A stretch of DNA of 14,898 nt, from NCBI GenBank assembly GCA_963977445.1, contig CAXBPH010000174.1, forward strand, positions 1-14,898, in the 5' to 3' direction. Made by a program: the position numbers and the translations under genes. The notes beneath the pieces are model-generated. The model ran no database searches. It was not told the DNA's origin and saw only the letters and a program-made list of their open reading frames with translations. The DNA is from an uncultured bacterium (GTDB lineage: Bacteria; Hydrogenedentota; Hydrogenedentia; Hydrogenedentales; JAEUWI01). Positions 1 through 14,898 of the stretch are shown here, in pieces. Position 1 is the first letter of the stretch. Each line of letters starts with the position of its first letter.

Positions 1-11
1 GTGGACTTAAC

Positions 12-28
12 AGCCCCTTTCAGGGGCT
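12..28. repeat. REP-like GC-rich hairpin
   Basis: AGCCCCT-TTC-AGGGGCT is a perfect 7-bp stem with a 3-nt loop, followed by TTCC. Confidence 0.35.
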
Positions 29-172
29 TTCCTCATACCCCTGGCTCTGCCGGTGCTTTCTGATTGCAAGCTAATCCACCGGCTCTGACGTGCCTGCGTA
101 TGCCACAGCGAATTTGGGCATCTATCAACGCGTGGGATTCCGAAGGTGCCCCGGCGGCGCACAGGAAATTCG

Positions 173-330
173 CAGCCCGTTGCAAAAGGCGCGCGAAGGC
201 GAGAACGAGAATTCTTGGCCGAAATCAAGGCGCGAGTCCACAGGAAATACCGGTATTTTCAAGGACTCGCAACGCTGAGTTCGGTCAAGAAGGCCGTTCG
301 TAGCCCGCGTTCGAGTTTTGCAACGGGCTG
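173..330. mobile_element. MITE-like non-autonomous element (158 bp) with 15-bp perfect terminal inverted repeats and 4-bp target-site duplication
   Basis: CAGCCCGTTGCAAAA (173-187) is the exact reverse complement of TTTTGCAACGGGCTG (316-330). TTCG flanks both sides (169-172, 331-334). The interior has nested inverted repeats (212-223/280-291, 232-239/263-270) and a central palindrome AAATACCGGTATTT (245-258). No transposase is encoded. Confidence 0.75.
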
Positions 331-600
331 TTCGCCCAGACAAATAGGTAGCGGTCTCCAGCTGTTCACGTGGGCGTTTGCCCTGGAGTTGGTACCCGGA
401 GATACGAACGCGGACCCCGCTGTCCTGTTGTTGACCACCGGTCTATCAGTTCTCTGGCCCGTCATTTATCCTTGAATACCCCGATTCAATAAAGTGCGAA
501 ATACACTTAATCATAGTGCCTCTTGGAGGAAGTCCAGGGCATAAATCTGCTGCAACCAGACATTGTTATACGTATTTCCGTAATCGGGATCTGAAGACCA

Positions 601-629
601 TTGACAAATCGCGAAAAATTTAAAATAAT
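601..629 (+). promoter_or_regulatory. sigma70-type promoter for the DUF1559 gene
   Basis: TTGACA (601-606), 17-nt spacer, AATAAT (624-629), in an AT-rich intergenic stretch. Confidence 0.65.
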
Positions 630-822
630 AGGAGAGTAGAATTCATTCTAAACAAGTCAACACAAGCGCGTTCGTATCAGGTAGAAAGGAGATTCAGGAG
701 TTGTTTGCGCCATCGATTGCGTAGACTACAACCCTATGAGAACGCGTTGAGTCCAATCGGTCATACGTTTCATTCATAACTGTTTTTTTGGTCAATGACA
801 TCATACACGAGGGAATACAATC

Positions 823-1854
823 ATGAAGAGAAAAGGATTTACACTGATAGAGTTGCTGGTGGTTATCGCAATCATCGGTATTTTAGCCGCAATCTTGCTA
901 CCTGCACTGGCCCGGGCTCGTGAAGCCGCACGCCGCGCACAGTGCCAGAATAACCTGAAGCAAATGGGTATTGTCTTTAAAATGTACGCGAACGAGTCGA
1001 AAGGCGAAAAATTTCCGATTAGTGAATTCGGCGGGCCGGTGGGATACAACTGCGAAGCCGGTAACAACGCTACGGTCCTGGCGACCATTACGGGCGGTCC
1101 GGGCAATGGTTCCGCCTTCGCGCCCAATATCAATGCCATCTACCCCGAGTATCTGACCGATATCCAGGTGCTGAGTTGTCCTTCCGAGGATGACCCGCCT
1201 GCGTTCCAAAACCCATCCACAGGGGAGAACATGGGGCACATCTGGTGTGATCAGAATAGCTTAGGTACCGCGCAAGCGGATGAGAGCTACGCGTATACCG
1301 GTTTCATGTTTAACCGGTATCTGGACAATGCGTCGCTTCAGGTTCCTGCATCCGCGGTTGCCGGTGCGACCGGATGGACGGACCTCAACGACCTCATCGC
1401 CGCTGGGTTTATCAACGGTACAGAGATGTTCTCTTTGGATCTCTTCGGTGCTTTTGCTGGCGTCTTAAGCCTTCAGGCGCCCATCACAACTGCCCTTGTT
1501 GCATCCGGGTTGAATCCTGCCACACAAACGGAAGAAGCCTATCAGGTCATGTTTAATGCCGCTGATGGCTTGGATAGTGTTAAGAATGCGGTCACGAACG
1601 AGACCGTTTATCGTTTTCGGGAAGGTATTGAACGCTTCCTGATTACCGATATTAATAACGCGGCTGCTAGCGCCGAGGCCCAAAGTACAATTTTTGTTTT
1701 GTATGACATTGCTGGTGCCAAGCCCGATCTTTTTAACCACGTTCCCGGTGGTTCCAACGTTCTGTACCTGGACGGACATGTGCAGTTCATCAAGTACAAA
1801 GAAGGCATCCCCGTCGACTTGTCGATGGCTCTGCTGGTTGGTGCGGCAGGCTGA
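823..1854 (+). CDS. DUF1559 family prepilin-type N-terminal cleavage/methylation protein with C-terminal H-X9-DG-type motif
   Basis: Class III signal [29 protein letters not shown], then ARE..RR..CQNNLKQ and C-terminal [26 protein letters not shown] lies upstream. Confidence 0.93.
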
Positions 1855-1890
1855 ACCAACACGGTTAACGGACAAATAACAACTTACAGT

Positions 1891-1938
1891 GCGGCTCCCG
1901 GCATTCACTTTGTGCCGGGAGCCGCTTTTCTATTTTCT
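1891..1938 (+). terminator. Rho-independent terminator
   Basis: 13-bp perfect stem GCGGCTCCCGGCA (1891-1903)/TGCCGGGAGCCGC (1913-1925) followed by TTTTCTATTTTCT. Confidence 0.88.
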
Positions 1939-2312
1939 TACACCCCACACGGTACTCGCTCGTTGGCATTTCCGAAAACCACACGAAGTCCTGCAAGAGG
2001 CCATTATCTTGCGCGACACCACCTTCGCCAACGACATGACCGTCACGCACTCAACGTTGAAATTGTGGGTGAGGCCCGTGGCCAGTTCGCCATCGAAACT
2101 GAAACTGGAGGTCGCGTGATAGTTGGTGTCCACGTGTCTATGGAGGGCACTTGACTCCCCGGAGAATGCCGGTGATACTGACGCTACGGGCAGGTCGCGC
2201 TTGTGTGCAGCCGCCCGTTGTGTTGTTGGACCGGCGATTAGAGTCCAATCCCACATTCCTATGTATGCCCAAAGCGGAACGTTCTCGTATATTCTAAGGG
2301 AGAGGCAACGAG

Positions 2313-2924
2313 GTGCTGGATAAAACCGTACAACTTGCAACGAAGTACAAGAGCTATCTTGTCGCCGCGGTTCTCGGTATTTCGATAGTTTTCGTCACTC
2401 CGTTGATACTCATCAATCAGTATTATTCGGAGAAAAACCTGTTCATGATGAACATACCCTTTGCCATCAGTGAATCTGATGGGTGTTCATCAATGAAGAT
2501 CGATTATGTGTTGCCGAAAGGCGTCTACAAATGTTTTCTACTTGTTGGGACCAATAATCCCGGCCCGATAGATTTGGAAGCGAACGAACTTTTGGTCCGC
2601 TGCAGTTTTTATGCGTCGGGATACAAAGTGGACGAAGAGGAAACGACAATACCGTTTAGTTCATCCTTGGTGGAACGATATCAGCAGGAACATGAGGACA
2701 ATCGTCGGATGTTTCTTGATACGGGTGAGCGGGTGCTTCCCCATCCGTGGGCCTATATGGAAAATGAAGTTGATGGCAATATGAAGTTCGCAATCGGATG
2801 GCTTTATCTTGATTCAGACGGTAGCCTCGGACAGATAGGGGTAAACTTGTGTGGCCTTGGCGGTATCGAGGCGAATAGCTTAAGCTATTCTTTCCGTATT
2901 GAGAAATTTATTGACGCGGTATAG
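2313..2924 (+). CDS. Hypothetical protein with one N-terminal transmembrane/signal-anchor helix
   Basis: 203-aa ORF with a GTG start after AGGGAGAGG. The hydrophobic stretch YLVAAVLGISIVFVTPLILI is preceded by lysines. No recognisable family motif. Confidence 0.6.
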   Translation: MLDKTVQLATKYKSYLVAAVLGISIVFVTPLILINQYYSEKNLFMMNIPFAISESDGCSSMKIDYVLPKGVYKCFLLVGTNNPGPIDLEANELLVRCSFYASGYKVDEEETTIPFSSSLVERYQQEHEDNRRMFLDTGERVLPHPWAYMENEVDGNMKFAIGWLYLDSDGSLGQIGVNLCGLGGIEANSLSYSFRIEKFIDAV

Positions 2925-2983
2925 AACCTGCCTTGCTGGGGAATGGCCGTGTCCTTTGCAACTGATTTTCCGGGAGCAACCTA

Positions 2984-4090
2984 TTGGATTATCGAAATCT
3001 TGAAGCGGCCATGAATGTGGCCGGTGTCGGTATCGCCCAACTTGGACCTGATGGGGTGCTTCAGGAAGTGAATGGCTCCCTGTGTGTGTTGCTTGGTTAT
3101 GAAGCCAGCGACCTGTTGGGCCGAAACATTCAGGATTTCATCCATCCCGAGGGCCTCGGAGAAAACGGGGCTGCGAAGGAGCCGTTACCGGAAGACCTGT
3201 CTGCCGGGGAGGGGGCCCTGAAATGTTACGTGCGCCAGGATGGACAGCTGGTCTGGGCGCGGGTGAGTGAAGGGCCATCGCAAACGGAGGAGGGGCAACC
3301 GGCGTCGAGCGTGGTCGTGTTTCAGGACATGAGCGAGACCAAGGCGGTGGAGGACAGGTGCGAGGCCCTGCGTGTGGCGTTGGAGCGCAGCAATCGGGAC
3401 TTGAAGAACTTTGCCTATGTAGCATCGCACGATTTGCAGGAACCACTCCGGATGGTCGTGAGTTACATGAAATTACTGGAGCAGCACCACCGAGGGAGTC
3501 TCGGTGCAGAGGCGGAACGGTGGATCGCCTACGCGGCGGATGGCGCGCTACGGATGAAGAGCCAGATCAACGACTTGCTGGCGTATTCGCGGATCGAGAC
3601 GGACGGCGAGTCGCCCGATGCGGTGCCTTCGGAGGCTGCGCTCGCCGATGCCCTGGATGAACTAGACGATTTGGTGCTTCTGACGTCGGCAGAAATCACC
3701 CATGACGCTCTGCCCGTCGTTTTAGCGGACCCTGCCCAGTTGGCGCAGGTGTTTCAGATTCTCATCGGCAATGCGATCAAGTTTCGTGGTTCCACGCGTC
3801 CCAGAATACACATCGATGCGGAGCGGAAGGGGGCTATCTGGCAATTTTCTGTGAGCGATAACGGCATCGGAGTAGACGAGCGCCATTTCGAGCGCGTATT
3901 TAAGGTTTTCCAGCGCCTCCATACGGCAGAAGAGTACGCTGGGAACGGCATTGGCCTGGCGATATTTCGAAAGATTATCGAGCGGCACGGCGGGCGCGCT
4001 TGGTTGGAATCCAATCCTGATGGGGGCTCTTTATTCCACTTCACCCTGTCGGAGCCGGTTACGGCATCCTCCAGTCGGTCGCTCCGTTGA
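2984..4090 (+). CDS. Cytoplasmic PAS-domain sensor histidine kinase (Cph1/phytochrome-type HisKA + HATPase_c, no photosensory module)
   Basis: PAS (GIAQLGPDG..VN..LC.LLGY...L.G...HPE), H-box FAYVASHDLQEPLRMV, N-box LIGNAIKF, G1 DNGIGVD, F-box FKVFQRLH, G2 GNGIGLAI. TTG start after GGGAG; ATG 3011 is an alternative. Confidence 0.93.
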   Translation: MDYRNLEAAMNVAGVGIAQLGPDGVLQEVNGSLCVLLGYEASDLLGRNIQDFIHPEGLGENGAAKEPLPEDLSAGEGALKCYVRQDGQLVWARVSEGPSQTEEGQPASSVVVFQDMSETKAVEDRCEALRVALERSNRDLKNFAYVASHDLQEPLRMVVSYMKLLEQHHRGSLGAEAERWIAYAADGALRMKSQINDLLAYSRIETDGESPDAVPSEAALADALDELDDLVLLTSAEITHDALPVVLADPAQLAQVFQILIGNAIKFRGSTRPRIHIDAERKGAIWQFSVSDNGIGVDERHFERVFKVFQRLHTAEEYAGNGIGLAIFRKIIERHGGRAWLESNPDGGSLFHFTLSEPVTASSSRSLR

Positions 4091-4355
4091 GGGAATTAGA
4101 TGGTCGTGGTGAGCGTTGATAAGGGAGACGCTACTATTGCGAAGTCGATAGCTCATTTTACCTATTGTAAATATTATTATAAGGGGTTGTCGTGTCCTCG
4201 AGTCCTTCTACAAGGGTGCCAACATAGGTTTGATCGCAAGTTTCCCAGAGCTCTGCCCATTAAACCCATCATTTCAATCCAGAAATTCCAGTTTATGGTC
4301 ATGGACATACCCCAAACTATTTGATAGACTCTTTACGGTGGAGTGGCTATCGAAA

Positions 4356-5222
4356 ATGGCGTCAAGTCAATTCAAAATATTACTGGTCGAAGATAATTTC
4401 GGCTACACGGAACTAATCCGGCGTATGCTCAAACGGGTTTGCGGTGAGGAATCGCTTGTTGTTGTGACCCGGCTTTCTGATGCGCGTGCTCAACTCAAAG
4501 TGAGTGACTTCGACCTGATTATCCTCGATCTCTCCCTGCCAGACAGTGCGGGCTTAGATACATTGGCCGGTATTCGAGACGAAGCTCCGTCTGTTCCGGT
4601 GGTGGTTACGACCGGAGGGGAAGACGATCTGATGGCCCTGAAGGCGGTCCAAATGGGTGCGCAGGACTACCTCTCGAAGGGAAATTTGACGAGCCACACG
4701 TTGATTCGCTCGGTCCGGTATGCGCTGGAGCGACAGCGACGTTTGCTGGAACTGGACAAGTCCCGGCAAAAGGAACTCAATGACCGTGAGCTGGAAGCCA
4801 TTGAGCGAATCCAGCGTGGCTCGGAGACTGGTGTCACCTCTCAGCCTCACGGACGGGCTTCACTGCGCGATGTGGCCCCCGATGAATTTGAACGTCTTGT
4901 TACACTTTACGGAACAATACTCGAGCATGCACTTGAAGTGAGGGGGTATCGGGCAGAGGCGAATTCCACCGGGGAACTTCGAATGATGTCTGACCGACTA
5001 GCCTTTCTGAAATCAGGTCCCCGTGATGTCATTGAGATTCATACAGCAAGCTTAAAAGAAAAGCTCGAATCTGTGGCACCACAAAAGGCCGGTGTATACG
5101 TCGACGAAGGGCGCTTTTTACTCCTTATGCTGATGGGGGAACTAGTGTCCACGTATCGGACTCAATCGTTGGGAACCAGGGGGATTTCCGATGCAACGGC
5201 TGAGCCTTCCCAAGGAGATTGA
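4356..5222 (+). CDS. kaiA3: REC domain + KaiA-like C-terminal domain protein (KaiA3-type response regulator)
   Basis: Likely start ATG 4356 (MASSQFKILLVEDN) downstream of GGAG. The receiver is intact (ED, DLSLPD, TTG, K). The C-terminus PRDVIEIH..x23..RFLLLMLMGELVSTYRTQS aligns by eye to KaiA IVEIH..RLTLIDILAHLCEMYRRS. It lies directly upstream of kaiB. Confidence 0.72.
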   Translation: MASSQFKILLVEDNFGYTELIRRMLKRVCGEESLVVVTRLSDARAQLKVSDFDLIILDLSLPDSAGLDTLAGIRDEAPSVPVVVTTGGEDDLMALKAVQMGAQDYLSKGNLTSHTLIRSVRYALERQRRLLELDKSRQKELNDRELEAIERIQRGSETGVTSQPHGRASLRDVAPDEFERLVTLYGTILEHALEVRGYRAEANSTGELRMMSDRLAFLKSGPRDVIEIHTASLKEKLESVAPQKAGVYVDEGRFLLLMLMGELVSTYRTQSLGTRGISDATAEPSQGD

Positions 5223-5226
5223 TGCT

Positions 5227-5541
5227 GTGTCAGAGAATGAGAAGCTCCAACTAAGGCTGTATGTGACCGGGCAGACACCCCGATCAGTACGTGCGATTAC
5301 CAATATCAACCGTCTATATGAGAGCAAACTACAGAAAAGTTTCGAGTTGGTCGTGATTGATGTGCTGGAAAACCCCCAACTGGCCGAAGACGAGAAAGTC
5401 GTCGCGACACCCACATTGATTAAAGAGCTGCCCCTACCCTTACGCCGTATTATTGGTGATTTTTCCGACGCAAAAAAAGTACTGCTTGGACTCGACCTTC
5501 TGCATTTAAATAATGAAAATGAAATAGAGCGACTATCATGA
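5227..5541 (+). CDS. kaiB: Circadian clock protein KaiB family
   Basis: LRLYVTGQTPRSVRAI..IDVLENPQLAEDEKVVATPTLIKELPLPLRRIIGDFSDAKKVLLGLDL is a canonical KaiB signature. GTG 5227 follows AAGGAG (5212-5217) and is preferred over the track's ATG 5191. Confidence 0.95.
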   Translation: MSENEKLQLRLYVTGQTPRSVRAITNINRLYESKLQKSFELVVIDVLENPQLAEDEKVVATPTLIKELPLPLRRIIGDFSDAKKVLLGLDLLHLNNENEIERLS

Positions 5542-5771
5542 AAACGGATACAACCGAGCGCCCCAAGACGGTTTATGCTGCCCAATGTCTGTTGTTGGTC
5601 TTCAAGGAAAGCCGCGACCAGTTAATCCGCAAGACTTTTGCCTGGGGGATGGTCCTCGCCATGACATTCCGAAATATCACGGGAATTTTAGTCGGAAACC
5701 TGATTCACGGGGAACCTATCGAGCTTGAACGGGGCCGCAGACTTCTTCAAGGCGAAACGATTAATGGATAG
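5538..5771 (+). pseudogene. kaiC: Internally deleted kaiC remnant preserved as an open 77-aa ORF ('mini-KaiC'); pseudogene or small functional protein
   Basis: ATGA overlap with the kaiB stop. QCLLLVFKESRDQLIRKTFAWGM resembles KaiC CII RAILFAYEESRAQLLRNAYSWGM. FRNITGILVGNLIH..ELERGRRL resembles the KaiC C-terminal FRNFERIISGSPT..ELSRI tail. No Walker A motif is present. Confidence 0.7.
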
Positions 5772-5823
5772 TCGTTCGAGAGCTCATCGTTGCGTGGCTA
5801 TGCAATTATCATGAAAGGTCCCG

Positions 5824-7752
5824 ATGGGCAGTGATCATCATATAAAGGTTTTACTCGTAGAAGATAATTCCGGCGATGCTGATCTGATAAAAATCATGCT
5901 CGCCGGGGAAAAGTCCTATCGATTTGCCGTAGCGCATGCAGATCGCCTCAGCACGGGACTGGCGCACCTCAAAAACATTGCTACCGATGTGCTCCTTCTG
6001 GATCTTTCCCTGCCCGATAGCGAAGGCAGTGATAGTTTTAGTATGGTGCACGACTGCTTTCCAGATATGCCCACCATCATTCTCACGGGCAATCATGATG
6101 AAACTCTGGCCCCTCAACTGGTTCGAGGTGGTGCGCAAGATTTCCTTGTAAAGAGTGACCTGAACACCGGGGAATTGGTGCGGGCTATTCGCTACGCCAT
6201 CCAACGACAACAGCTAACGCACGAACTGGAAGAGCGAAATAAGGAAATAGAGGCCAGTCGCTCTAGGCTTCATCAGATCATTACCGACAATGCCGATGCT
6301 ATCGTTTTGCTCGACCCCAACGGGGCTATACAATTCTCCAATCCTGCGGCCACACGGCTCCTGGGTCGGCGGTCAGACGATCTGCGGGGTGTTCCCTTCG
6401 GCTACCCGATTGTAGTCGATGGCGTGACAGAGCTCGATATCATTCGCCGAGACGGTCGACAGTGTATTGCGGAAATGCAGGTGGTGTGGACCAATTGGGA
6501 GGGGCACGAAGCCTATCTGGCAACGCTTCGTGATGTAACTGCACGAAAGAACCTGGAGGCCCAACTGCGCCAGACGCAGAAACTGGAGAGTCTCGGGGTC
6601 ATGGCATCCGGTATCGCCCACGACTTCAACAATATCCTCACCGGGATCCTTGGCTACGGCAATCTCGTTTTAGAAGACTTGGAACCCGGCACAACCCAAC
6701 GGGCGAATATGAAGACCTTAATAGAATCTGCGGAGCGGGCTGCCGAACTTTCCAAACTCATGTTGGCCTATACCGGGCAGGGGCTTCGTGCCACACTTTC
6801 TCTGGATATAAACATGCTCATACATGACATGGGCGATATCTTCGCGTCGATAATTCCGAATACGCACGACGTGTTCTATAGCTTGGACGATGAGAGTCCT
6901 TTCGTCGATGGGGACCCGTCACAGTTGCGACAGGTCATCGTAAACTTAATGCTCAACGCCTCGGAAGCGATCGGAGAATCAGACGGTCAAATTGAGATTA
7001 GTACGGGTGAAATAGAATGTACGGCGAGTGATCTCAAGCGTATCGTTTTCGGTGAGCAATTGGAGCCCGGGACCTACGTCTATTTTGAGGTACGCGATTC
7101 CGGATGTGGAATAGATGAAGTAAGCAGAACGAAGCTCTTCGATCCGTTTTTCACGACCAAGTTCACCGGTCGGGGCTTGGGCCTTGCGGCTACGTCTGGA
7201 ATTGTCCGGGCCCACGGCGGCGGCATTTTAGTAAGTAGTGAGCCTGGCAAAGGGGCTACGTTCACGGTCGTATTGTCGCCCTCCGCCAATCCAGTCCCTG
7301 AATCACCCCGACGGATGACCAGGAAAGGCGATTGGCACGGCAGCGGCACGATACTCGTAGTCGACGATGAGCCACCGATTCGTGACACCCTGAAAAGAAC
7401 GTTGGCGCGATTCGGATTTTCGGTTCTGCTCGCCGAAAACGGCGAACAAGGTGTCGATATTTTTCGCGCCCATAGTCATGAGATCGTTGCATCCATCATT
7501 GATATGACGATGCCAGGGCTGGACGGGCAGGAAACACTTTGCCAGATTCGCGAGATCTGTTCCGATGCGCGGGTAATTTTAAGTAGTGGATACAGCGAAG
7601 ACAATTGTGCTGAATACGATGCCGAACTCAAGCCAGATGCCTTTTTGCAAAAACCCTACCGGGCTATGGATTTTATCACTATGTTGCGCGGTGTGTTGGA
7701 AGGGAATGCTTCCACCGAAACGAGGGATACGTCCGACAGGCGGGATGGTTGA
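5824..7752 (+). CDS. Hybrid sensor histidine kinase REC-PAS-HisKA-HATPase_c-REC
   Basis: N-terminal REC (LLVEDN..LLLDLSLPD..LTG..K), PAS (DAIVLLDPNG..FSNPAA..LLG), H-box IAHDFNNIL, NASEA, DSGCGI, FDPFFTTK, GRGLGLA, and C-terminal REC (VVDDE..IDMTMP..SSGYS..QKPY). Confidence 0.95.
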   Translation: MGSDHHIKVLLVEDNSGDADLIKIMLAGEKSYRFAVAHADRLSTGLAHLKNIATDVLLLDLSLPDSEGSDSFSMVHDCFPDMPTIILTGNHDETLAPQLVRGGAQDFLVKSDLNTGELVRAIRYAIQRQQLTHELEERNKEIEASRSRLHQIITDNADAIVLLDPNGAIQFSNPAATRLLGRRSDDLRGVPFGYPIVVDGVTELDIIRRDGRQCIAEMQVVWTNWEGHEAYLATLRDVTARKNLEAQLRQTQKLESLGVMASGIAHDFNNILTGILGYGNLVLEDLEPGTTQRANMKTLIESAERAAELSKLMLAYTGQGLRATLSLDINMLIHDMGDIFASIIPNTHDVFYSLDDESPFVDGDPSQLRQVIVNLMLNASEAIGESDGQIEISTGEIECTASDLKRIVFGEQLEPGTYVYFEVRDSGCGIDEVSRTKLFDPFFTTKFTGRGLGLAATSGIVRAHGGGILVSSEPGKGATFTVVLSPSANPVPESPRRMTRKGDWHGSGTILVVDDEPPIRDTLKRTLARFGFSVLLAENGEQGVDIFRAHSHEIVASIIDMTMPGLDGQETLCQIREICSDARVILSSGYSEDNCAEYDAELKPDAFLQKPYRAMDFITMLRGVLEGNASTETRDTSDRRDG

Positions 7753-8012
7753 GTGGACGGGACGTCAGGGACGTACGCCCCCCTCCACGGCCCTCCCAGC
7801 GCCCTGGACGGAGGTGCGCGAAAAGGTATGGGCAGGCGCTTCGGCGGCACGTCGCGTTGCGCTTATGGGGAATTGTGCTAAATCGCTCATTGAGGGTGCC
7901 CTTCAACTTCGTCACCTGGTGTGCCGGTCGACGTTGAGTCTGGGCAGGTTTGTGTTCCATGTACTCCATCCGGTGGAGATTTCTATCATATTTTTGGGCA
8001 AAATGAAAAAAC

Positions 8013-8041
8013 TTGCAATATCTCGTACTTCGGGATATGAT
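8013..8041 (+). promoter_or_regulatory. sigma70-type promoter with an overlapping imperfect palindrome
   Basis: TTGCAA (8013-8018), 17 nt, TATGAT (8036-8041), preceded by an A-tract. ATATCTCG-N5-CGGGATAT spans the spacer. Confidence 0.6.
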
Positions 8042-8089
8042 TTCCCTTGGATCTAAATCGATTAAACCTATCAAAGTTGGGACTTAAGG

Positions 8090-8668
8090 ATGGAATCGAA
8101 GCAGTCTTTCAGTACCTCAGAGGTTGCAAAATATTGTCACGTAACCGCTGACACCATTCGGAAGTGGGCGGAAGCGGGTCGTATTCACGTTTTTAAGACG
8201 CCCGGTGGTCATCGACGAATTCGTCGGGACGACTTAGTCCGCTTTCTGCGGGAAAACAAGATACCCATTCACGAAGATTTGGATAATGCCGGTATTCGGG
8301 TACTTGTGGTGGACGACGAAAAGGCGGTGGTTTCGGTGATTCGTCGCTTTCTGGAACGATCGAGAACATCTTTCCAGATTGAAGTTGGGGCAGATGGGTT
8401 TGAGGCAGGGCACCACATGGCGACTTTCAGGCCCAATGTGGTGTTTTTGGATCTGCGCCTGCCGGGTATGGATGGTTTCGAAGTTTGCCGTCGGATTAAG
8501 TCGGACCCGGAAACCAGCAATTGCCAGATAATCGCTATGACGGGATACTACGAAGGCGATGTGGCCCAGCGTATCGTCGATATGGGGGCGGCCTTGCTGA
8601 TGCAGAAGCCCTTCACTCCGGATGATCTGCGTCGTGCCCTTGCCAAAGTCGGTGTGGAAGTGAACTAG
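8090..8668 (+). CDS. Response regulator with N-terminal excisionase/MerR-like HTH (HTH_17) and C-terminal REC domain
   Basis: FSTSEVAKYCHVTADTIRKWAEAGRI..KTPGGHRRI, followed by VLVVDDE..FLDLRLPGMDG..MTG..QKPF. Confidence 0.92.
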   Translation: MESKQSFSTSEVAKYCHVTADTIRKWAEAGRIHVFKTPGGHRRIRRDDLVRFLRENKIPIHEDLDNAGIRVLVVDDEKAVVSVIRRFLERSRTSFQIEVGADGFEAGHHMATFRPNVVFLDLRLPGMDGFEVCRRIKSDPETSNCQIIAMTGYYEGDVAQRIVDMGAALLMQKPFTPDDLRRALAKVGVEVN

Positions 8669-8717
8669 ACGTCGAAGAGCGTGGTCTTGATTTCCCGCAA
8701 CAGTTGCGGCAACTCGA

Positions 8718-9458
8718 TTAATCTTCGATGGTCGCGGCACTCGCGCGAAGCAATTCCTCGAGCTGATTGGCCAATTGACCATACTTTTCCCGATAATCCA
8801 GGTTGCTCCGCCGTATCACTTCCTTCGCTTCTTCCGCGCCATAGACGTGGGTAATTTCGCAGGCTTTACGCATGGCATCGGGTGCCTGCTTATAGGTGAG
8901 GAAGTAGTGTCGGAGCCGCTCAACCAGCATGGAAGGGCACTGACTGATATCCTGCCAGTAGCCATAGGAGGGGTCGCCTTCGAGGATGGCGATAATCTTG
9001 TCATCCGCTTCATCCCCATCGAGCATGCGGAGACCACCAATGGGGTGAGCGCGCATATAGACATTGACGTGGGCGATATGCTTTTCCGTTAACACGCATA
9101 CATCCAAGGGGTCGCCGTCACCGATGATATCTTCGCGACCGGTCTTCATGCGGCAGTATTCTGCGACCAATTCCCCACAGTAGGTCTGGGGTACGAATCC
9201 GTAGAGCTCCGGACACACGTTTGAAAAACGTTGGGGACGGTCAATCCGCAAGAGCCCCGTGGTCTTGTCCAATTCATACTTCACCGTGTCTGTCGGCAGG
9301 ATTTCGATATAGGCGTTTATGGTATCGGGCGCCTCGGGGCCGATGGAGATACCATGCCATGGATGGGCGCGAAAGAGGCGTGTTGAACCGCCCATAAGTG
9401 CGCCATTGGTGGCAGGGGTGGGCTGCGTATCGCCTTTGTCTGTGTGCTCACTGGACAT
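8718..9458 (-). CDS. ppa: Family I inorganic pyrophosphatase
   Basis: HPWHG, KYELDK.TG.L.IDR, YGFVPQTY, GDGDPLDVCVL, DGDEADDKIIA, YF.TYK. GGAGG RBS upstream. Confidence 0.95.
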   Translation of the reverse strand: MSSEHTDKGDTQPTPATNGALMGGSTRLFRAHPWHGISIGPEAPDTINAYIEILPTDTVKYELDKTTGLLRIDRPQRFSNVCPELYGFVPQTYCGELVAEYCRMKTGREDIIGDGDPLDVCVLTEKHIAHVNVYMRAHPIGGLRMLDGDEADDKIIAILEGDPSYGYWQDISQCPSMLVERLRHYFLTYKQAPDAMRKACEITHVYGAEEAKEVIRRSNLDYREKYGQLANQLEELLRASAATIED

Positions 9459-9485
9459 GTATAGTTCCTCCGCGTTAACTGCGCC

Positions 9486-9494
9486 ATTGTAGCA
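9486..9494 (-). promoter_or_regulatory. Extended -10 promoter element for ppa
   Basis: The minus strand reads TG-C-TACAAT, about 27 nt upstream of the ppa ATG. Confidence 0.45.
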
Positions 9495-9553
9495 CCGTCA
9501 TGGTATGTCGTGCCACCTCCACATCGCTAAAGATGCACGTTATAGTGCGAAAT

Positions 9554-9583
9554 TTGCACTGATCGAAGACCCCATGCTATCTT
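9554..9583 (+). promoter_or_regulatory. Putative promoter for the rfbA operon
   Basis: TTGCAC (9554-9559), 18 nt, TATCTT (9578-9583), with an extended TG at 9575-9576. Confidence 0.35.
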
Positions 9584-9664
9584 TCGATCTGGTCGGGATT
9601 TGTCAATCGTGGCGCACCGAACGTCGTCGAAGCGCGGCGCGGTGCCCTACCAATAGGAAGCGAT

Positions 9665-10528
9665 ATGAAGGGAATTATCCTCGCTGGCGGTGCTGGTACC
9701 CGTCTTCACCCGCTAACCCGGGTTGTAAGTAAACAGTTGCTGCCGATCTACGACAAGCCGATGATCTACTATCCCCTGAGCATCCTCATGCTCTCCGGTA
9801 TCCGGGAGGTCATGCTTATCTCTACCCCCGAGGATCTGCCGAACTTCAAGCGTCTGCTGGGCGACGGCAGCCGGTGGGGGATGAGCCTGTCCTATGCCGA
9901 ACAACCCAGCCCTGACGGATTGGCGCAGGCGTTCATTATCGGTGCCGATTTTATTGGGGAGAGCCCCGTGTGTCTCGTCCTGGGAGACAATATTTTTTAT
10001 GGTCATGGCCTGACGGGCCTTCTTCGTGAATCCGCGAAAATGACCGAGGGTGCCCAGATTTTCGGCTACTATGTAAGTGATCCCCAGCGCTATGGCGTGG
10101 TGGAGTTTGATTCCTCCGGCACGGCCATCAGTCTGGAAGAAAAGCCGACCCAGCCCAAGAGCCATTACGCCGTACCCGGCCTCTATTACTACGGGCCCGA
10201 GGTTGTGCCCATGGCGAGTGCACTGAAGCCGGGAGCCCGGGGTGAATTGGAAATTACCGATTTGAACCGCCTGTTTATGGAGCAAAAGCAGCTTCGGGTG
10301 GAAGTGTTGGGACGGGGTGTCGCCTGGCTCGACACGGGGACAAATCGCAGTCTCATGGAGGCCGGCCAATTCGTACAGGCCATTGAAGAGCGACAGGGGC
10401 TCAAGATTTCCTGTCTGGAAGAGATTGCCTGGAAACAAGGCTGGATAGGTCCGGAAGATGTCCAAAGAGAGGCCGATTCCATGGGAAAGAGCGCCTATGC
10501 TGAATACTTGCGTCAACTGTTGGCCTGA
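9665..10528 (+). CDS. rfbA: Glucose-1-phosphate thymidylyltransferase (RmlA/RfbA)
   Basis: [79 protein letters not shown]. Confidence 0.97.
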
Positions 10529-10554
10529 CGGCCCCCTATAGCGCCACGGCTCTC

Positions 10555-12372
10555 ATGAATATACTCGGTATCTCCGCATACTACCACGACAGCGCCGCGT
10601 GTCTGGTTCAAGATGGGCGCATTGTGTCGGCCGCCCAGGAAGAGCGCTTTACCCGGATCAAGCACGATTCAGCTTTTCCTGAGCATGCGGTGGCCTGGTG
10701 TCTGGCGGATGCCGGACTGACCACGGCCGACATCGATCTGGTGGCATTCTACGATAAGCCCTTCCTCAAATTTGAGCGTATATTGCAAACCCATCTGGCC
10801 TATGCGCCCCGGGGAATTCGCTCCTTTATCAAGGCTATTCCTGTCTGGCTCAAAGACAAAATATGGCTGAAGGACCACATCGCCGAGAATCTCGACTACG
10901 ACGGCACGATCCTTTTTCCCGAGCACCATGAATCCCACGCGGCCTCCGCATTTTATCCGTCGCCCTTTGACCGGGCCGCCTTCCTGACCATTGACGGCGT
11001 GGGAGAGTGGGCGACGACGAGCTACGGCGTTGGCGATACGAATCGTCTCCAGATGCACGGCGAAATCCATTTTCCCCATTCGCTGGGACTTCTCTACTCG
11101 GCCTTCACCTACTACACCGGCTTCAAGGTAAACTCGGGCGAGTACAAGGTCATGGGCCTGGCCCCCTACGGAGAGCCCACCTATGTAAAAACCATACTCG
11201 ACGAACTCATCGATCTGAAAGAGGACGGCTCTTTTCAGATGAACATGAAATATTTTAATTATTGTGCCGGTCTGACCATGACTAACCGTCACTTTGACAC
11301 CCTCTTTGGTGGCCCACCGCGAAAGGCGGAGTCCCAATTGACCCAACGGGAAATGGATTTAGCCCGTTCCGTGCAAGAGGTGACCGAGGAGGCCATGTTG
11401 CGGATGGGCCGTCATGTGCACCGCGAGACGGGAAGCAACAATCTCTGTCTCGCCGGGGGCGTGGCCCTTAATTGTGTGGCCAACGGACGCCTCCTCCGCG
11501 AAGGTCCCTTTGACAAACTCTGGATCCAGCCCGCCGCTGGGGATGCGGGCGGGGCCTTGGGTGCCGCCCTCTATGCCTGGCATCAATACCGCGACGAACC
11601 GCGCGTGGCCAACGGTGTGACGGACTCCCAGCGAGGCTCTTATCTCGGGCCCCACTATTCTGGAGAGACCATACGGGCCTTCCTCGACGCAGCGGGGTAT
11701 CCCTATACCCAGCTGGGCGAAGCGGAACTTGCCGATACCGTCGCCGGCCATCTGGCGCAGGAAAACGTCATTGGCTGGTTTCAGGGGGCCATGGAATTTG
11801 GCCCGAGGGCCCTGGGCGGCCGTTCCATACTTGGCGACCCGCGCTCGCCTAAAATGCAGGAAACCATGAACCTGAAAATTAAGTTTCGGGAAAGTTTTCG
11901 GCCCTTTGCCCCCTCGGTTCTTGCGGAGGATGTGTCGGACTACTTCGAGCAGGATGTGGAAAGTCCCTACATGCTGCTGGTGGCCCCCGTGAAAGAATCC
12001 CTTCGCCGGGACATGACCGAAGAAGAGCGGGCGCTCTTTGGGATTGAAAAACTCAACATCAGTCGCTCCACCATTCCCGCCATTACCCATGTGGACTATT
12101 CGGCGCGTATTCAAACAGTCCATCAGGAAACGAATCCCCAATATTACCGGCTGCTTCAGGCCTTCAAGGCGCAAACGGGGTGCTCGGTTTTGATAAACAC
12201 GTCCTTCAATGTTCGGGGGGAGCCCATCGTCTGTACCCCGGAAGATGCCTACCGCTGTTTCATGCGGACCGATATGGATTACCTCGTCCTGGAGGATTGT
12301 GTGTTAGCCAAATCGGCGCAGCCCGCCCTCGAAGGAGACACGGACTGGAAGCAGGAATTCGAACTGGATTGA
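10555..12372 (+). CDS. O-carbamoyltransferase, CmcH/NodU/TobZ (SxtI-like) family
   Basis: ILGISAYYHDSAA, AQEERFTRIKHD, EHHESHAASAF, IDGVGE, GEYKVMGLAPYG, LAGGVALNC, EFGPRALGGRSIL, KFRESFRPFAP, INTSFNVRGEPIV. Confidence 0.96.
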   Translation: MNILGISAYYHDSAACLVQDGRIVSAAQEERFTRIKHDSAFPEHAVAWCLADAGLTTADIDLVAFYDKPFLKFERILQTHLAYAPRGIRSFIKAIPVWLKDKIWLKDHIAENLDYDGTILFPEHHESHAASAFYPSPFDRAAFLTIDGVGEWATTSYGVGDTNRLQMHGEIHFPHSLGLLYSAFTYYTGFKVNSGEYKVMGLAPYGEPTYVKTILDELIDLKEDGSFQMNMKYFNYCAGLTMTNRHFDTLFGGPPRKAESQLTQREMDLARSVQEVTEEAMLRMGRHVHRETGSNNLCLAGGVALNCVANGRLLREGPFDKLWIQPAAGDAGGALGAALYAWHQYRDEPRVANGVTDSQRGSYLGPHYSGETIRAFLDAAGYPYTQLGEAELADTVAGHLAQENVIGWFQGAMEFGPRALGGRSILGDPRSPKMQETMNLKIKFRESFRPFAPSVLAEDVSDYFEQDVESPYMLLVAPVKESLRRDMTEEERALFGIEKLNISRSTIPAITHVDYSARIQTVHQETNPQYYRLLQAFKAQTGCSVLINTSFNVRGEPIVCTPEDAYRCFMRTDMDYLVLEDCVLAKSAQPALEGDTDWKQEFELD

Positions 12373-12376
12373 GCCC

Positions 12377-12814
12377 ATGATTCTGGAAGAACTGAAAACT
12401 ATCAAGAGCGGTCGCCATGAGCGACACCAGTTTGGCGTGGTTATGGCCATTGCTGCCTTTATCATCGGCGGCATATTGTGGTGGCGAAAGGACCTCTATT
12501 CCGGCATCTTCATCGCCGGGATTGTCTGTGTTGCCCCCGTTGTCTTTGACAAAATCTGCAAGACCGATGTTTCCATTGTGCTCTTGCCCTTTCAGAAAGT
12601 GTGGATGTCCATCGCCGTGGTCATGGGTACCATCGTATCCACCCTGTTCCTGTCCCTGTTTTTCTATGTGGTCTTTACGTCCATTCGTTTTGCGAACAGA
12701 TTTCTTGGAAAACCACTGCTCGAAAACGGTTGGGCACCGGAAAGCAAGGACAGCTACTGGATACGACGGGAAGGGGAGACCTATGATCCCCAACGGAGCG
12801 AAAAGCAGTATTGA
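12377..12814 (+). CDS. SxtJ family membrane protein
   Basis: Starts 4 nt after the carbamoyltransferase. Pattern FG..3 TM helices..P..K.WM.IA..MG.I.S...L...FY.VFT, ending SYWIRR..EKQY. Confidence 0.82.
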   Translation: MILEELKTIKSGRHERHQFGVVMAIAAFIIGGILWWRKDLYSGIFIAGIVCVAPVVFDKICKTDVSIVLLPFQKVWMSIAVVMGTIVSTLFLSLFFYVVFTSIRFANRFLGKPLLENGWAPESKDSYWIRREGETYDPQRSEKQY

Positions 12815-12949
12815 CGCACAGGCATAACGTACATGCCCTCGCGTAACCGCCCTTGCCCAGCTTCTCCAAATCTTCCACTGGCTCCCATGCCCCATGGTGG
12901 TTTATACTGCAAAGCGAAACGTGTGACTCTAAACGCAGGATAAACACCA

Positions 12950-13108
12950 ATGGCAAAATCGTCCATACTCCGCGAACTCTGGGATTTCGCCCGGGTGCGC
13001 AAAAAGTGGTGGCTCGGCCCCATCATCCTTTTTCTAGTCCTCTTTGGCGCGCTCATTGTGATCGCCAAGGGCTCCGCAGTAGCACCCTTTATTTATACCT
13101 TGTTCTAA
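12950..13108 (+). CDS. DUF5989 family (SxtK-like) small membrane protein, 52 aa, absent from the ORF track
   Basis: Translated by hand: MAKSSILRELWDFARVRKKWWLGPIILFLVLFGALIVIAKGSAVAPFIYTLF*. It has the RKKWWL.P and APFIYTLF signatures, with an AGGA RBS upstream. Confidence 0.92.
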   Translation: MAKSSILRELWDFARVRKKWWLGPIILFLVLFGALIVIAKGSAVAPFIYTLF

Positions 13109-13140
13109 TCGGCAGGCTTGGGGCGAGATAAGGTGGGGAT

Positions 13141-14418
13141 ATGACGCTCGAACAATTCTTACGTCGTAAAGACTTCGTCGTTGTCCCAAGTTTGCACCGA
13201 TTCTTTGTGTATCTGGTTGCCTTTCGGGTGATGCCCCTCGGGTGGCTTGTGGTGGGGGGCTGGCTGGCCACCACCTTCATGAGCGTCAGTGGCGTAGATC
13301 GACCGGTTTTTATTGCTGTTTGTGCGTGGACGGCCCCGGGTGTTATTGCCTTCCTCCTCGGCTGGGCGATTCGACCCCGCGTGACGGTGAAGGCCGATTT
13401 TCCAACCCGTGGTGCCGTGGACCAGCGGCTGAGCGTTCGGTGCGGTCTACAGAATACGTCGGTCCGTCCCCAGTTTTCTGTGGCGGCTGGTATGTTTCTC
13501 CTTCCGCTGGAGTTGGAGCGCGAGCGCAACGGTGCGGTTGTCGACGCAATCCCACCGGGCGAGACGGCCTTCAGCACGATCGACATTATCCCCCGACGGC
13601 GTGGCTACTATCGGATGCCCGGCCCCGTTGCCTATTCCACCTTTCCACTGAATTTTTACCGGACGCCTGCCGGAAAGGCCGATACGTGGCCCCTGCTGGT
13701 CCTGCCCACTTTTCACCCGATTCATCAGATCGATGTCCCCATTGGTACCCGCTATCAGCCCGGTGGCGTCGCCCTGACCTCGCACATCGGCGAGTCACCG
13801 GAATATATTGGCAACCGCGAATATGTGCCCGGCGATCCGATACGCCATATCGACTTTCGGGCCTGGGCACGCCTTTCCAAGCCGGCAGTCCGGGAATATC
13901 AGGAAGAGTACTATTGCCGCATTGCGCTGGTGCTCGATACCTTTACGGGAAAAGTGAATCCCCCTGCACCCGCCGGTTTTCCAGATTTCGAAGCGGCGGT
14001 TAGTCTGACGGCCGCCGTCGCCGACGCCTTGTCACGGGGGGAGTACCTGATAGACCTCTTTGCGGCGGGGCCCGAGCTCCACGTCTTTCGCGCCGGACGT
14101 CACACGGCCCATTTCGACAATGTATTGGAAATACTCGCCGGTGTCGGCCACACCGTGGATAATCCCTTTGAGCGTCTTGCCCCGGCACTCATGGAAGCGT
14201 TGAACAATATTTCCACCGTGGTCTGCCTCTTTCTGGATTGGGATAAGACCCGGGAGCATGTCGTTCGGGCGGCGGCAGAGGCGGGGTGCAGCCTGAAGGT
14301 GATTGTCGTGCGGGACGGGAATACGACAGTGCCCCTCGATAGTGCCTATGCCTGGACACCCCACGTGCAGCAAGTTTCCATTGCTGCGGTACGCGATGGT
14401 GGCGTGGATACCCTGTGA
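13141..14418 (+). CDS. DUF58 domain-containing protein (MoxR-associated, vWA-like)
   Basis: Two N-terminal TM helices, P.RRG.Y, G.S.EY.G.REY.PGD.IRHID.RAWAR, VREY.EE, LVLD, FEAAVSL.A. Confidence 0.9.
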   Translation: MTLEQFLRRKDFVVVPSLHRFFVYLVAFRVMPLGWLVVGGWLATTFMSVSGVDRPVFIAVCAWTAPGVIAFLLGWAIRPRVTVKADFPTRGAVDQRLSVRCGLQNTSVRPQFSVAAGMFLLPLELERERNGAVVDAIPPGETAFSTIDIIPRRRGYYRMPGPVAYSTFPLNFYRTPAGKADTWPLLVLPTFHPIHQIDVPIGTRYQPGGVALTSHIGESPEYIGNREYVPGDPIRHIDFRAWARLSKPAVREYQEEYYCRIALVLDTFTGKVNPPAPAGFPDFEAAVSLTAAVADALSRGEYLIDLFAAGPELHVFRAGRHTAHFDNVLEILAGVGHTVDNPFERLAPALMEALNNISTVVCLFLDWDKTREHVVRAAAEAGCSLKVIVVRDGNTTVPLDSAYAWTPHVQQVSIAAVRDGGVDTL

Positions 14419-14898
14419 TGACGGTTCGAATCATAGGGTTGATCATGTTGGTCGTCGAAGTGGGGCTGCTTCAGTTGACCATGGGCTACCCCATCGTGGC
14501 AGGCCTTGCGGTGCTTTTCGCCCTGCCTGGTTTTGTGCCACGGCTTCAGTTAGATTGGGGCTATCGGAAGAAATACCTGAGCGCCATCGCTATTGGGGCG
14601 TTGTATCTCGGATGGTGGTGGGTCGATCTGCAATACCGGGAGCCATCCCTATCCGCCCAGTTTGGCAACAACCTTTCCGTGGCCTTTGCCTTAGCGCTCA
14701 TGATGATGCAGGCCCTTCAGTTTTATTGGCGGGATTCTCGGGGATTGCCGGGAATCTATCCTTTTCTCGGGATTCTGGCCCTGGGCTTCGCGGCAGACCT
14801 TTACTTCAACAGCAAAATCGGCTATGCCCGGGTCGTTGTTGTAATAATGGCCTTTGGACTGCTAGTCGGGCTTTTCTATGCAGCGCACCACCGAGCAG
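14418..14898 (+). CDS. Polytopic membrane protein, runs off the window end; probably the N-terminus of a DUF3488/transglutaminase (TgpA-like) protein
   Basis: ATG overlaps the DUF58 stop (TGATG). The frame is open for 160 codons (MTVRIIGLIMLVVEVGLLQL...GLLVGLFYAAHHRA) with several hydrophobic helices. The product is guessed only from the usual DUF58 gene context. Confidence 0.6.
   Translation, partial: MTVRIIGLIMLVVEVGLLQLTMGYPIVAGLAVLFALPGFVPRLQLDWGYRKKYLSAIAIGALYLGWWWVDLQYREPSLSAQFGNNLSVAFALALMMMQALQFYWRDSRGLPGIYPFLGILALGFAADLYFNSKIGYARVVVVIMAFGLLVGLFYAAHHRA

Follow-up and report, generated by a model that had tools for sequence, protein, structure and literature searches.

A 77-codon open reading frame in the kaiC3 position of a Hydrogenedentota kai operon is probably a decaying kaiC3 relic shaped by internal deletions

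We analysed a stretch of 14,898 nucleotides (hereafter the window) from an uncultured bacterium of the Hydrogenedentota (GenBank assembly GCA_963977445.1, contig CAXBPH010000174.1, positions 1 to 14,898 of the forward strand) and focused on a short open reading frame (ORF) at positions 5538..5771 of the plus strand, stop codon included, that directly follows a kaiB gene. We conclude that this ORF is probably a decaying relic of kaiC3, lying at the normal kaiC3 position of an operon with the order histidine kinase (HK)-kaiA3-kaiB3-kaiC3-HK. Three internal deletions of about 30, 256 and 144 codons would have taken out most of the gene. They would have spared the original start codon with its coupling to the kaiB stop, seven residues of the Walker A region of CI, the strand and helix of CII that carry the Glu-Glu pair, and the C-terminal strand, A-loop and tail, and the remnant would then have drifted. 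Judged from its sequence, the 77-residue product most likely has no function of its own.

The ORF runs over 77 amino acids from an ATG to a TAG in the program-made ORF list, exactly as a preliminary description of this DNA had stated. Curated models gave only weak hints of its nature. The NCBIfam KaiC model aligned ORF residues 15-42 with model positions 302-329 at E=0.0076, and KaiC chains in the PDB were retrieved at E=0.006-0.15 with residues 16-41 placed on residues 311-336 of S. elongatus KaiC and K23-E24 on 318-319. The best-matching chain, 8ZN5, is a reconstructed ancestral KaiC according to passages of PMC12081879. All curated KaiC family scores were missed (NCBIfam KaiC, 14.9 bits against a cut-off of 408 and 11.6 bits against 546), and a Pfam scan of the ORF at E<=1 returned no KaiC or ATPase match.

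Because the curated models gave no more than hints, we built our own KaiC3 reference. An alignment of 10 KaiA3-like sequences retrieved 80 related loci from the genome collection (cited below by their L numbers), none with more than 47 % identity, and the 59 syntenic KaiC3 proteins found in these loci yielded a profile of 508 nodes. The nearest KaiA3 relative, P0002, is 70 % identical and lies on a metagenome contig of 6796 bases. Searched against all 502 stop-to-stop segments in the six frames of the window, the KaiC3 profile gave a sole match, in the frame of the ORF, with E=2.2e-10 and 34.5 bits; the next-best segment had E=6.5. The match consists of two collinear domains, the first placing ORF residues 11-38 on nodes 300-327 and the second residues 37-72 on nodes 470-505 of the 508.

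A shuffle control supports both domains, as none of 500 shuffles reached the observed profile score either for the piece with the CII Glu-Glu or for the C-terminal piece. BLASTP against single KaiC3 proteins gave E=2e-7 to 2e-6 for each of the two main segments, the C-terminal piece reaching E=6e-7 against the KaiC3 of L048 and E=2e-7 against that of L001. The preliminary description had assigned residues 16-40 to the CII Glu-Glu strand and helix, with EES changed to KES, and residues 44-70 to the C-terminal A-loop and tail. The first assignment now agrees with NCBIfam, the PDB chains, the profile and the shuffles, and the second with the profile domain on residues 37-72 and the same control.

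The position of the ORF points the same way. Downstream of the kaiA3-like gene, kaiB follows directly in 79 of the 80 related loci, and a full-length KaiC3 follows kaiB in 59 of them in a first pass, rising to 63 with four more found by profile (L009, cut by the contig end, L017, L054 and L074). The kaiC3 position is cut by contig ends in L047 and L049, and no KaiC3 follows the kaiB position in 12 Microcystis loci and in L012. The gene for the hybrid histidine kinase that lies downstream in the window begins, in 20 of the 25 best-scoring homologues, 1387-1752 nt past the end of kaiB and right behind kaiC3. The ORF thus occupies the place of kaiC3 in a conserved operon of the order HK-kaiA3-kaiB3-kaiC3-HK. 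Its start ATG overlaps the kaiB stop as ATGA, an arrangement of kaiB and kaiC3 also seen in 14 of 59 relatives.

Three loci of the set showed peculiarities of their own. In L045 (near 10433) and L046 (near 2868), kaiC3 is split by one frameshift each, either a sequencing error or a young pseudogene. L012 has a KaiA3-like match with neither kaiB nor kaiC after it, and a 1900-aa ORF with receiver similarity overlaps the area.

Homology and operon position together identify the ORF as KaiC-derived sequence, and the origin proposed in the preliminary description, a kaiC gene collapsed by in-frame deletions, is borne out by the profile match and the synteny. So is the survival of the frame, the coupled start and the stop: the frame is open, the ATGA overlap is in place and the ORF ends close to the native KaiC end.

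Alignment to the KaiC3 relatives resolves the ORF into four plus-strand pieces. Piece a comprises codons 1-11 (5538..5570) and corresponds to the native N-terminus of KaiC3 (M...TERPKT), starting with the ATG that overlaps the kaiB stop. The KaiC3 of the Planctomycetales locus L048 has LERVKTG at codons 10-16 as the counterpart of TERPKT, and 14 of 16 bases agree in the same codon phase, which is the best 16-mer match of the whole gene and is equalled by two of 200 shuffles. A faint resemblance of TERPKT to an N-terminal EKLPTG of KaiC had been suspected earlier, and the L048 match gives it substance.

Piece b comprises codons 10-16 (KTVYAAQ, 5565..5585) and would derive from the CI Walker A motif, of which it has the Lys-Thr, and from the start of the next helix. 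MAFFT places it on GSAKTVFAAQ, where the family consensus is KTVFAAQ, in the 59 KaiC3 its K, T, A and Q each show 97 % conservation or more, and its best profile match is to nodes 39-50. One of 500 shuffles matches equally well and therefore this origin, although likely, is less certain. We also considered the P-loop of CII as the source of residues 10-16, which is less likely, the CI consensus KTVFAAQ fitting five of the seven positions with Tyr for Phe at a sixth.

Piece c comprises codons 17-37 (5586..5648) and matches the CII strand and helix with the catalytic Glu-Glu (profile nodes 304-327, equalled by none of 500 shuffles). Here the pair reads Lys-Glu, with the codon of K23 at 5604-5606, while both Glu positions are invariant in 59 of 59 KaiC3. 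Piece d comprises codons 37-77 and the stop (5646..5771) and matches the last CII strand, the A-loop and the C-terminal tail of KaiC3, nodes 470-505 of 508, again with none of 500 shuffles reaching the score. Its stop lies a few residues from the end of the KaiC3 family.

Three junctions separate these pieces on the plus strand, with the missing spans counted in L048 numbering. Junction 1 (AAGACGG, 5565..5571) corresponds to the loss of about 30 codons between the N-terminal Lys-Thr and the Walker A Lys-Thr, as judged from the repeats in L048. Junction 2, between Q16 and C17 (5585/5586), corresponds to the loss of about 256 codons comprising the rest of CI, the linker and the CII Walker A. Junction 3 (GGGGGAT within TGG GGG ATG, 5644..5650), placed by the overlap of the two profile domains and by repeats in L001 and L015, corresponds to the loss of about 144 codons including the phosphorylation-site region. 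The preliminary description had counted about two deletions with junctions at 5570-5585 and 5655-5670; there are three, because piece b separates two of them, and the alignment moves the junctions to 5565-5571, 5585/5586 and 5644-5650.

We also asked about a KaiC N-terminus hidden in another frame of the KaiB tail (…NEIERLS). In the relatives, KaiB normally continues for 10-14 residues after LGLDL, and the profile finds no other match in the window, which rules this out.

About 430 of some 510 codons are missing from the ORF relative to KaiC3. What is gone includes nearly all of CI with the KaiB-binding region, the CII Walker motifs and the phosphorylation-site region; profile nodes 328-469, with that region, have no counterpart in the ORF. 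For orientation, the phosphorylation sites of Synechocystis KaiC3 are given as Ser423/Thr424 in passages of PMC11372060. Of the P-loops, the CI Lys-Thr alone is left, the Gly-rich part of CI and the entire CII Walker A lying inside the deleted spans, and the catalytic pair of CII reads K23-E24. From its sequence the 77-residue product cannot act as an ATPase, a kinase or a hexamer, and with every functional hallmark and every curated score failing, the ORF does not qualify as a functional KaiC.

What remains has diverged more than any KaiC3 in the set. Over the retained columns the ORF has a mean identity of 0.44 to the 59 KaiC3 and a maximum of 0.56, whereas every real KaiC3 reaches 0.58-0.74 in comparisons limited to members with a KaiA3 identity of 50 % or less. 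The neighbouring KaiA3 (0.38) and KaiB (0.53) are conserved as in other isolated lineages (L077, L048), and in a tree of KaiA3 plus KaiB the end branch of the window is 0.95, against 1.01 for L048 and 1.04 for L062. Over ORF residues 10-77, 9 of the 32 columns with 90 % conservation or more are changed (A21V, E23K, N32K, A33T, G35A, H39V, I40L, G41A and F70L, with E23, N32 and F70 family-invariant), a count that omits N-terminal residues misplaced by MAFFT (raw figure 13 of 37). Real KaiC3 members have 0.75 conserved columns changed on average and 7 at most. By region, the changes amount to 0 of 4 columns in piece b, 5 of 14 in residues 17-36, 3 of 8 in residues 37-49 and 1 of 6 in residues 50-72.

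The ORF also lacks the ribosome-binding site of coupled kaiC3 genes. Its Shine-Dalgarno pairing is -2.1 kcal/mol, while in the 25 relatives whose kaiB-kaiC3 gap is -8 to +4 it is always -2.9 kcal/mol or stronger, 24 of these 25 tightly coupled relatives have -6.6 kcal/mol or stronger, and kaiB of the window has -9.4. Weak pairing is found in other genes of the window too (-3.4 for the downstream hybrid kinase, HK2, and -1.7 for a carbamoyltransferase), and the ATGA overlap could allow reinitiation at the ORF. Two marks of a pseudogene or relic are thus seen in the ORF, a large loss of coding sequence and of essential residues, and divergence faster than in functional members and in the neighbours.

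The excess divergence also bears on another explanation, that the short gene is an artefact of assembly or of the population and that a full-length kaiC3 is really present. In favour of this, the contig of the window is probably metagenomic. The same protein is however recorded on 3 contigs, the longest of 110,563 bases, and 7-nt repeats are no site of assembler collapse. A mis-join of an intact gene would, moreover, not give retained pieces far more diverged than any real KaiC3, and we consider an artefact very improbable.

We then turned to orthologues of the ORF itself. A search of 1.84 billion representatives found only the ORF itself and a 1188-aa repetitive artefact (P0122), and a search of 5.8 billion clusters found only the ORF itself at near lengths and nothing among longer proteins; this negative is weak, the related loci covered being at most 47 % identical in KaiA3.

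How could a gene lose most of its length in three deletions and keep its frame? At junction 1, L048 has AAGACGG both after the N-terminal motif and in Walker A, in phase, and the window has AAG ACG G at 5565-5571. At junction 3, where the two profile domains overlap on Gly-Met, L001 and L015, whose KaiA3 is the most similar among the related loci, have GGGGGAT at both the W-G-I and the G-M-H sites, again in phase, and the window has TGG GGG ATG at 5643-5651. No clear microhomology was seen at junction 2 in the relatives examined. These repeats are read from relatives at most 47 % identical in KaiA3 and not from the ancestor. For two or more of the deletions, the probable cause is slippage or recombination between direct repeats of 7 nt. 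As the two copies specify one dipeptide and stand in the same phase, the product would be likely to stay in frame.

To see how general this bias is, we counted exact direct repeats with a spacing of 60 nt or more across the 59 kaiC3 genes. For 7-nt repeats 66.6 % of 7783 pairs are in phase, with corresponding shares of 60 % for 6-nt and 73 % for 8-nt repeats. The chance of three in-frame microhomology deletions is therefore about 0.3, as opposed to a naive 1/27. The cautious options offered in the preliminary description, chance or selection against polarity, thus give the best fit. A general caution follows: with two thirds of short direct repeats in kaiC3 in phase, microhomology deletions are biased to in-frame products, and an open frame therefore says little about whether a deletion relic is functional.

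Several observations nonetheless weigh against a relic in plain decay. None of the three deletions shifted the frame, which is open throughout, and start and stop are retained; the disrupted frame of a pseudogene is absent, the reading continuing from the ATG up to a stop close to where KaiC natively ends. In a neutral simulation starting from the ORF, the probability of no stop is 0.34 at 25 % extra amino-acid change, and at assumed indel-to-substitution ratios of 0.03 to 0.2 the frame stays intact with a joint probability of 0.16 to 0.002. Multiplied by the 0.3 or so for the deletions, pure chance comes to about 0.0006 to 0.05, which is uncomfortable. The GC content of the ORF by codon position (0.53/0.40/0.58) is similar to that of neighbouring genes, KaiA3 and KaiB are still constrained, so the system is not simply dying, and an identical 77-aa protein is recorded on three contigs. 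Some selection may act on the frame of the ORF.

One form that such selection could take concerns the frame and leaves the peptide irrelevant. Ribosomes reinitiating at the ATGA would read through the relic and shield the mRNA from Rho-dependent polarity, so that the downstream kinase is expressed. The kinase lies directly after kaiC3 in the 20 of 25 best homologues mentioned above and is thus probably co-transcribed. The sites between the ORF and the kinase are in no excess, with 5 promoter-like and 6 terminator-like sites against 3.7 and 4.0 in shuffles, and the ATGA overlap is preserved. When the first deletions occurred, loss of the frame would have deprived over 1 kb of translation. Today, however, the relic spans just 234 nt, with a gap of 52 nt to the kinase, and a shift into either other frame would still be read to 5726 or 5762, for which reason polarity pressure at present would be weak. 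With C at 0.24 and G at 0.27, the region shows no richness in C, and the in-frame deletions are already explained by in-phase repeats. This explanation is a variant of the relic explanation, and we keep it as a modest alternative that is on balance unlikely.

Alternatively, selection could have acted on the peptide. The preliminary description had raised a retained KaiA3-binding decoy or adaptor peptide. Such a small protein would offer the A-loop and tail of KaiC3 to a dimer of KaiA3 and so occupy or tune KaiA3, and by way of its receiver domain the flanking kinases, with no KaiC hexamer involved. The last 41 residues, which are retained, cover the region bound by KaiA in canonical KaiC. We take PDB entries 1SUY and 5C5E to be the KaiC C-terminal peptide on the KaiA C-domain dimer; the relic keeps the homologous stretch, and the C-domain of the neighbouring KaiA3 matches these KaiA chains weakly, at E=0.087-0.4. 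KaiA3 binds KaiC3 and stimulates its phosphorylation (passages of Koebler et al. 2024, PMC11372060). In addition, the tail preserves the motifs I50, L51, G53, E62 and R65, the start retains its coupling to kaiB, KaiA3 is intact, and the frame is open despite drift, with the neutral retention estimate of 0.002-0.16.

These points are balanced by others. The searches of representatives and clusters returned no orthologue, and the Shine-Dalgarno site of coupled kaiC3 genes is absent. Tail conservation is in no clear excess, with 1 of 6 conserved columns lost compared to 8 of 22 in residues 17-49, and in the tail Phe70, the only family-invariant residue besides E62, is changed and Pro55 (present in 53 of 59) is lost. 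Models of the ORF show no stable fold: the single-sequence AF2 model is one long helix (pLDDT 79, pTM 0.43), the Atlas model (pTM 0.23) has generic helical structural neighbours only, and both are uninformative. The passages of Koebler et al. (PMC11372060) do not map the KaiA3 site on KaiC3, and they describe the KaiA/KaiC interface residues as poorly conserved in KaiA3/KaiC3.

The decoy or adaptor proposal thus gains no support from the orthologue searches, the tail or the translation signal, and we consider it unlikely that the relic has been co-opted as a free tail peptide of KaiC3 whose translation is coupled to kaiB and which binds the KaiA3 dimer. If it were true, KaiA3 and KaiB3 would form a KaiC-less signalling module wired to both flanking histidine kinases. 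It would also be a natural case of a clock component reduced to its partner-binding tail, and a natural KaiA3-binding mini-protein. A relic decaying in place remains our preferred explanation.

The neighbouring genes look maintained. The kaiB gene (5191..5541, plus strand) encodes an apparently intact protein of the KaiB3 type (Pfam KaiB E=4.5e-27, 94 bits against a cut-off of 27; NCBIfam KaiB E=1.3e-31), in which 4 of 38 conserved columns are changed, all conservatively; 8 of 59 real members lose as many. The KaiB domain begins only at residue 22 and so the true kaiB start is uncertain. As annotated, the end of kaiA3 (stop 5222) and the kaiB ATG (5191) overlap by 32 nt.

The kaiA3-like gene (4356..5222, plus strand, with an alternative TTG start at 4230) encodes a receiver domain (Pfam Response_reg E=3.1e-19) and a KaiA-like four-helix C-domain, modelled as four helices at 175-271 with pLDDT 86.7. 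Its homologues include cyanobacterial response regulators of about 295 aa, and 3 of 33 conserved columns are changed, all conservatively and within the range of real members. A profile of 31 sequences of the C-domain ranked KaiA structures first in the PDB, with a best E of only 0.087. A fold search with the KaiA3 model returned receiver-domain matches only, and a single-sequence PDB search with the C-domain returned nothing relevant. The receiver, the four-helix C-domain and the position upstream of kaiB3 together identify the product as KaiA3.

Downstream of the ORF, HK2 (5824..7752, plus strand) is a hybrid histidine kinase with the Pfam domain order REC-PAS-HisKA-HATPase-REC. Upstream of kaiA3 lies a PAS histidine kinase (2984..4090, plus strand, Pfam), homologues of which are found 2.5-5.4 kb upstream of the kaiB end in many related loci. 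KaiA3, KaiB and both kinases look constrained, and presumably they work with a KaiC encoded elsewhere or without KaiC.

Farther out, Pfam identifies a prepilin/DUF1559 protein (823..1854) and a receiver protein with a MerR-type helix-turn-helix (HTH; 8090..8668). DUF1559 is typical of the planctomycetes, and taken by itself it would suggest a host in that phylum. A 203-aa ORF at 2313..2924, upstream of the PAS kinase, has no Pfam match and no homologue in the 80 related loci. The carbamoyltransferase (10555..12372) is directly followed by a 145-aa hydrophobic ORF (12377..12814) and a 52-aa DUF5989 ORF (12950..13108, E=2.5e-25), two ORFs that look like a small conserved accessory pair. An Rfam scan of the window found no family, and a tRNA scan found none.

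We therefore describe a well-supported gene relic with an instructive deletion anatomy, of moderate interest for the evolution of Kai systems and of low general surprise. Its value is that the collapse of a 1.5-kb clock ATPase gene is clear and can be dissected inside an otherwise maintained operon, with in-phase 7-nt repeats in relatives at two of the three junctions. It raises the question of what KaiA3 and KaiB3 do without KaiC3. Among the titles and abstracts listed for kaiC pseudogenes and in-frame deletions, none was found to describe a KaiC mini-ORF relic, a weak negative.

Compared with the KaiC3 of the KaiA3-KaiB3-KaiC3 system of Synechocystis and other bacteria, as presented in passages of PMC11372060, the relic has the same position after kaiA3 and kaiB3 and significant similarity to four collinear parts. 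It differs in having 77 aa as against about 505-515, no complete P-loop, Lys-Glu for Glu-Glu, no phosphorylation-site region and no CI ring. The same source reports that the KaiA3-KaiB3-KaiC3 synteny reaches beyond the cyanobacteria, with Synechocystis, Microcystis NIES-843 and Chloroflexus aggregans as exceptions.

Microcystis, with M. aeruginosa NIES-843 listed there as a synteny exception, offers a comparable situation among our loci, as KaiA3 and KaiB3 persist in both with no intact kaiC3 after them. The 12 Microcystis loci (L031-L036, L038, L039, L041, L042, L075 and L078) have no trace of KaiC in the fetched flanks (best E=1.3), and the gene after kaiB3 differs between species, whereas the window keeps a 77-codon trace in place. 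The window is thus a non-cyanobacterial case, beside Microcystis, in which KaiA3, KaiB3 and the kinases persist with no cis-encoded KaiC3.

By analogy, the nearest precedent in kind is found in some Prochlorococcus, which carry drastically truncated KaiA homologues of 62-66 aa and for which a stepwise loss of kaiA is debated (Dvornyk and Mei 2021, PMC8113500, in the passages we draw on). In both cases a clock gene would have been cut to a short ORF in its original operon place, with a relic and a mini-protein as the debated readings. According to the same passages, the Prochlorococcus fragments are highly conserved across strains, while for the KaiC relic no orthologue could be detected and its divergence is unusually high. 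Finally, the reduction in Prochlorococcus hits the accessory KaiA, whereas the one described here hits the central ATPase.

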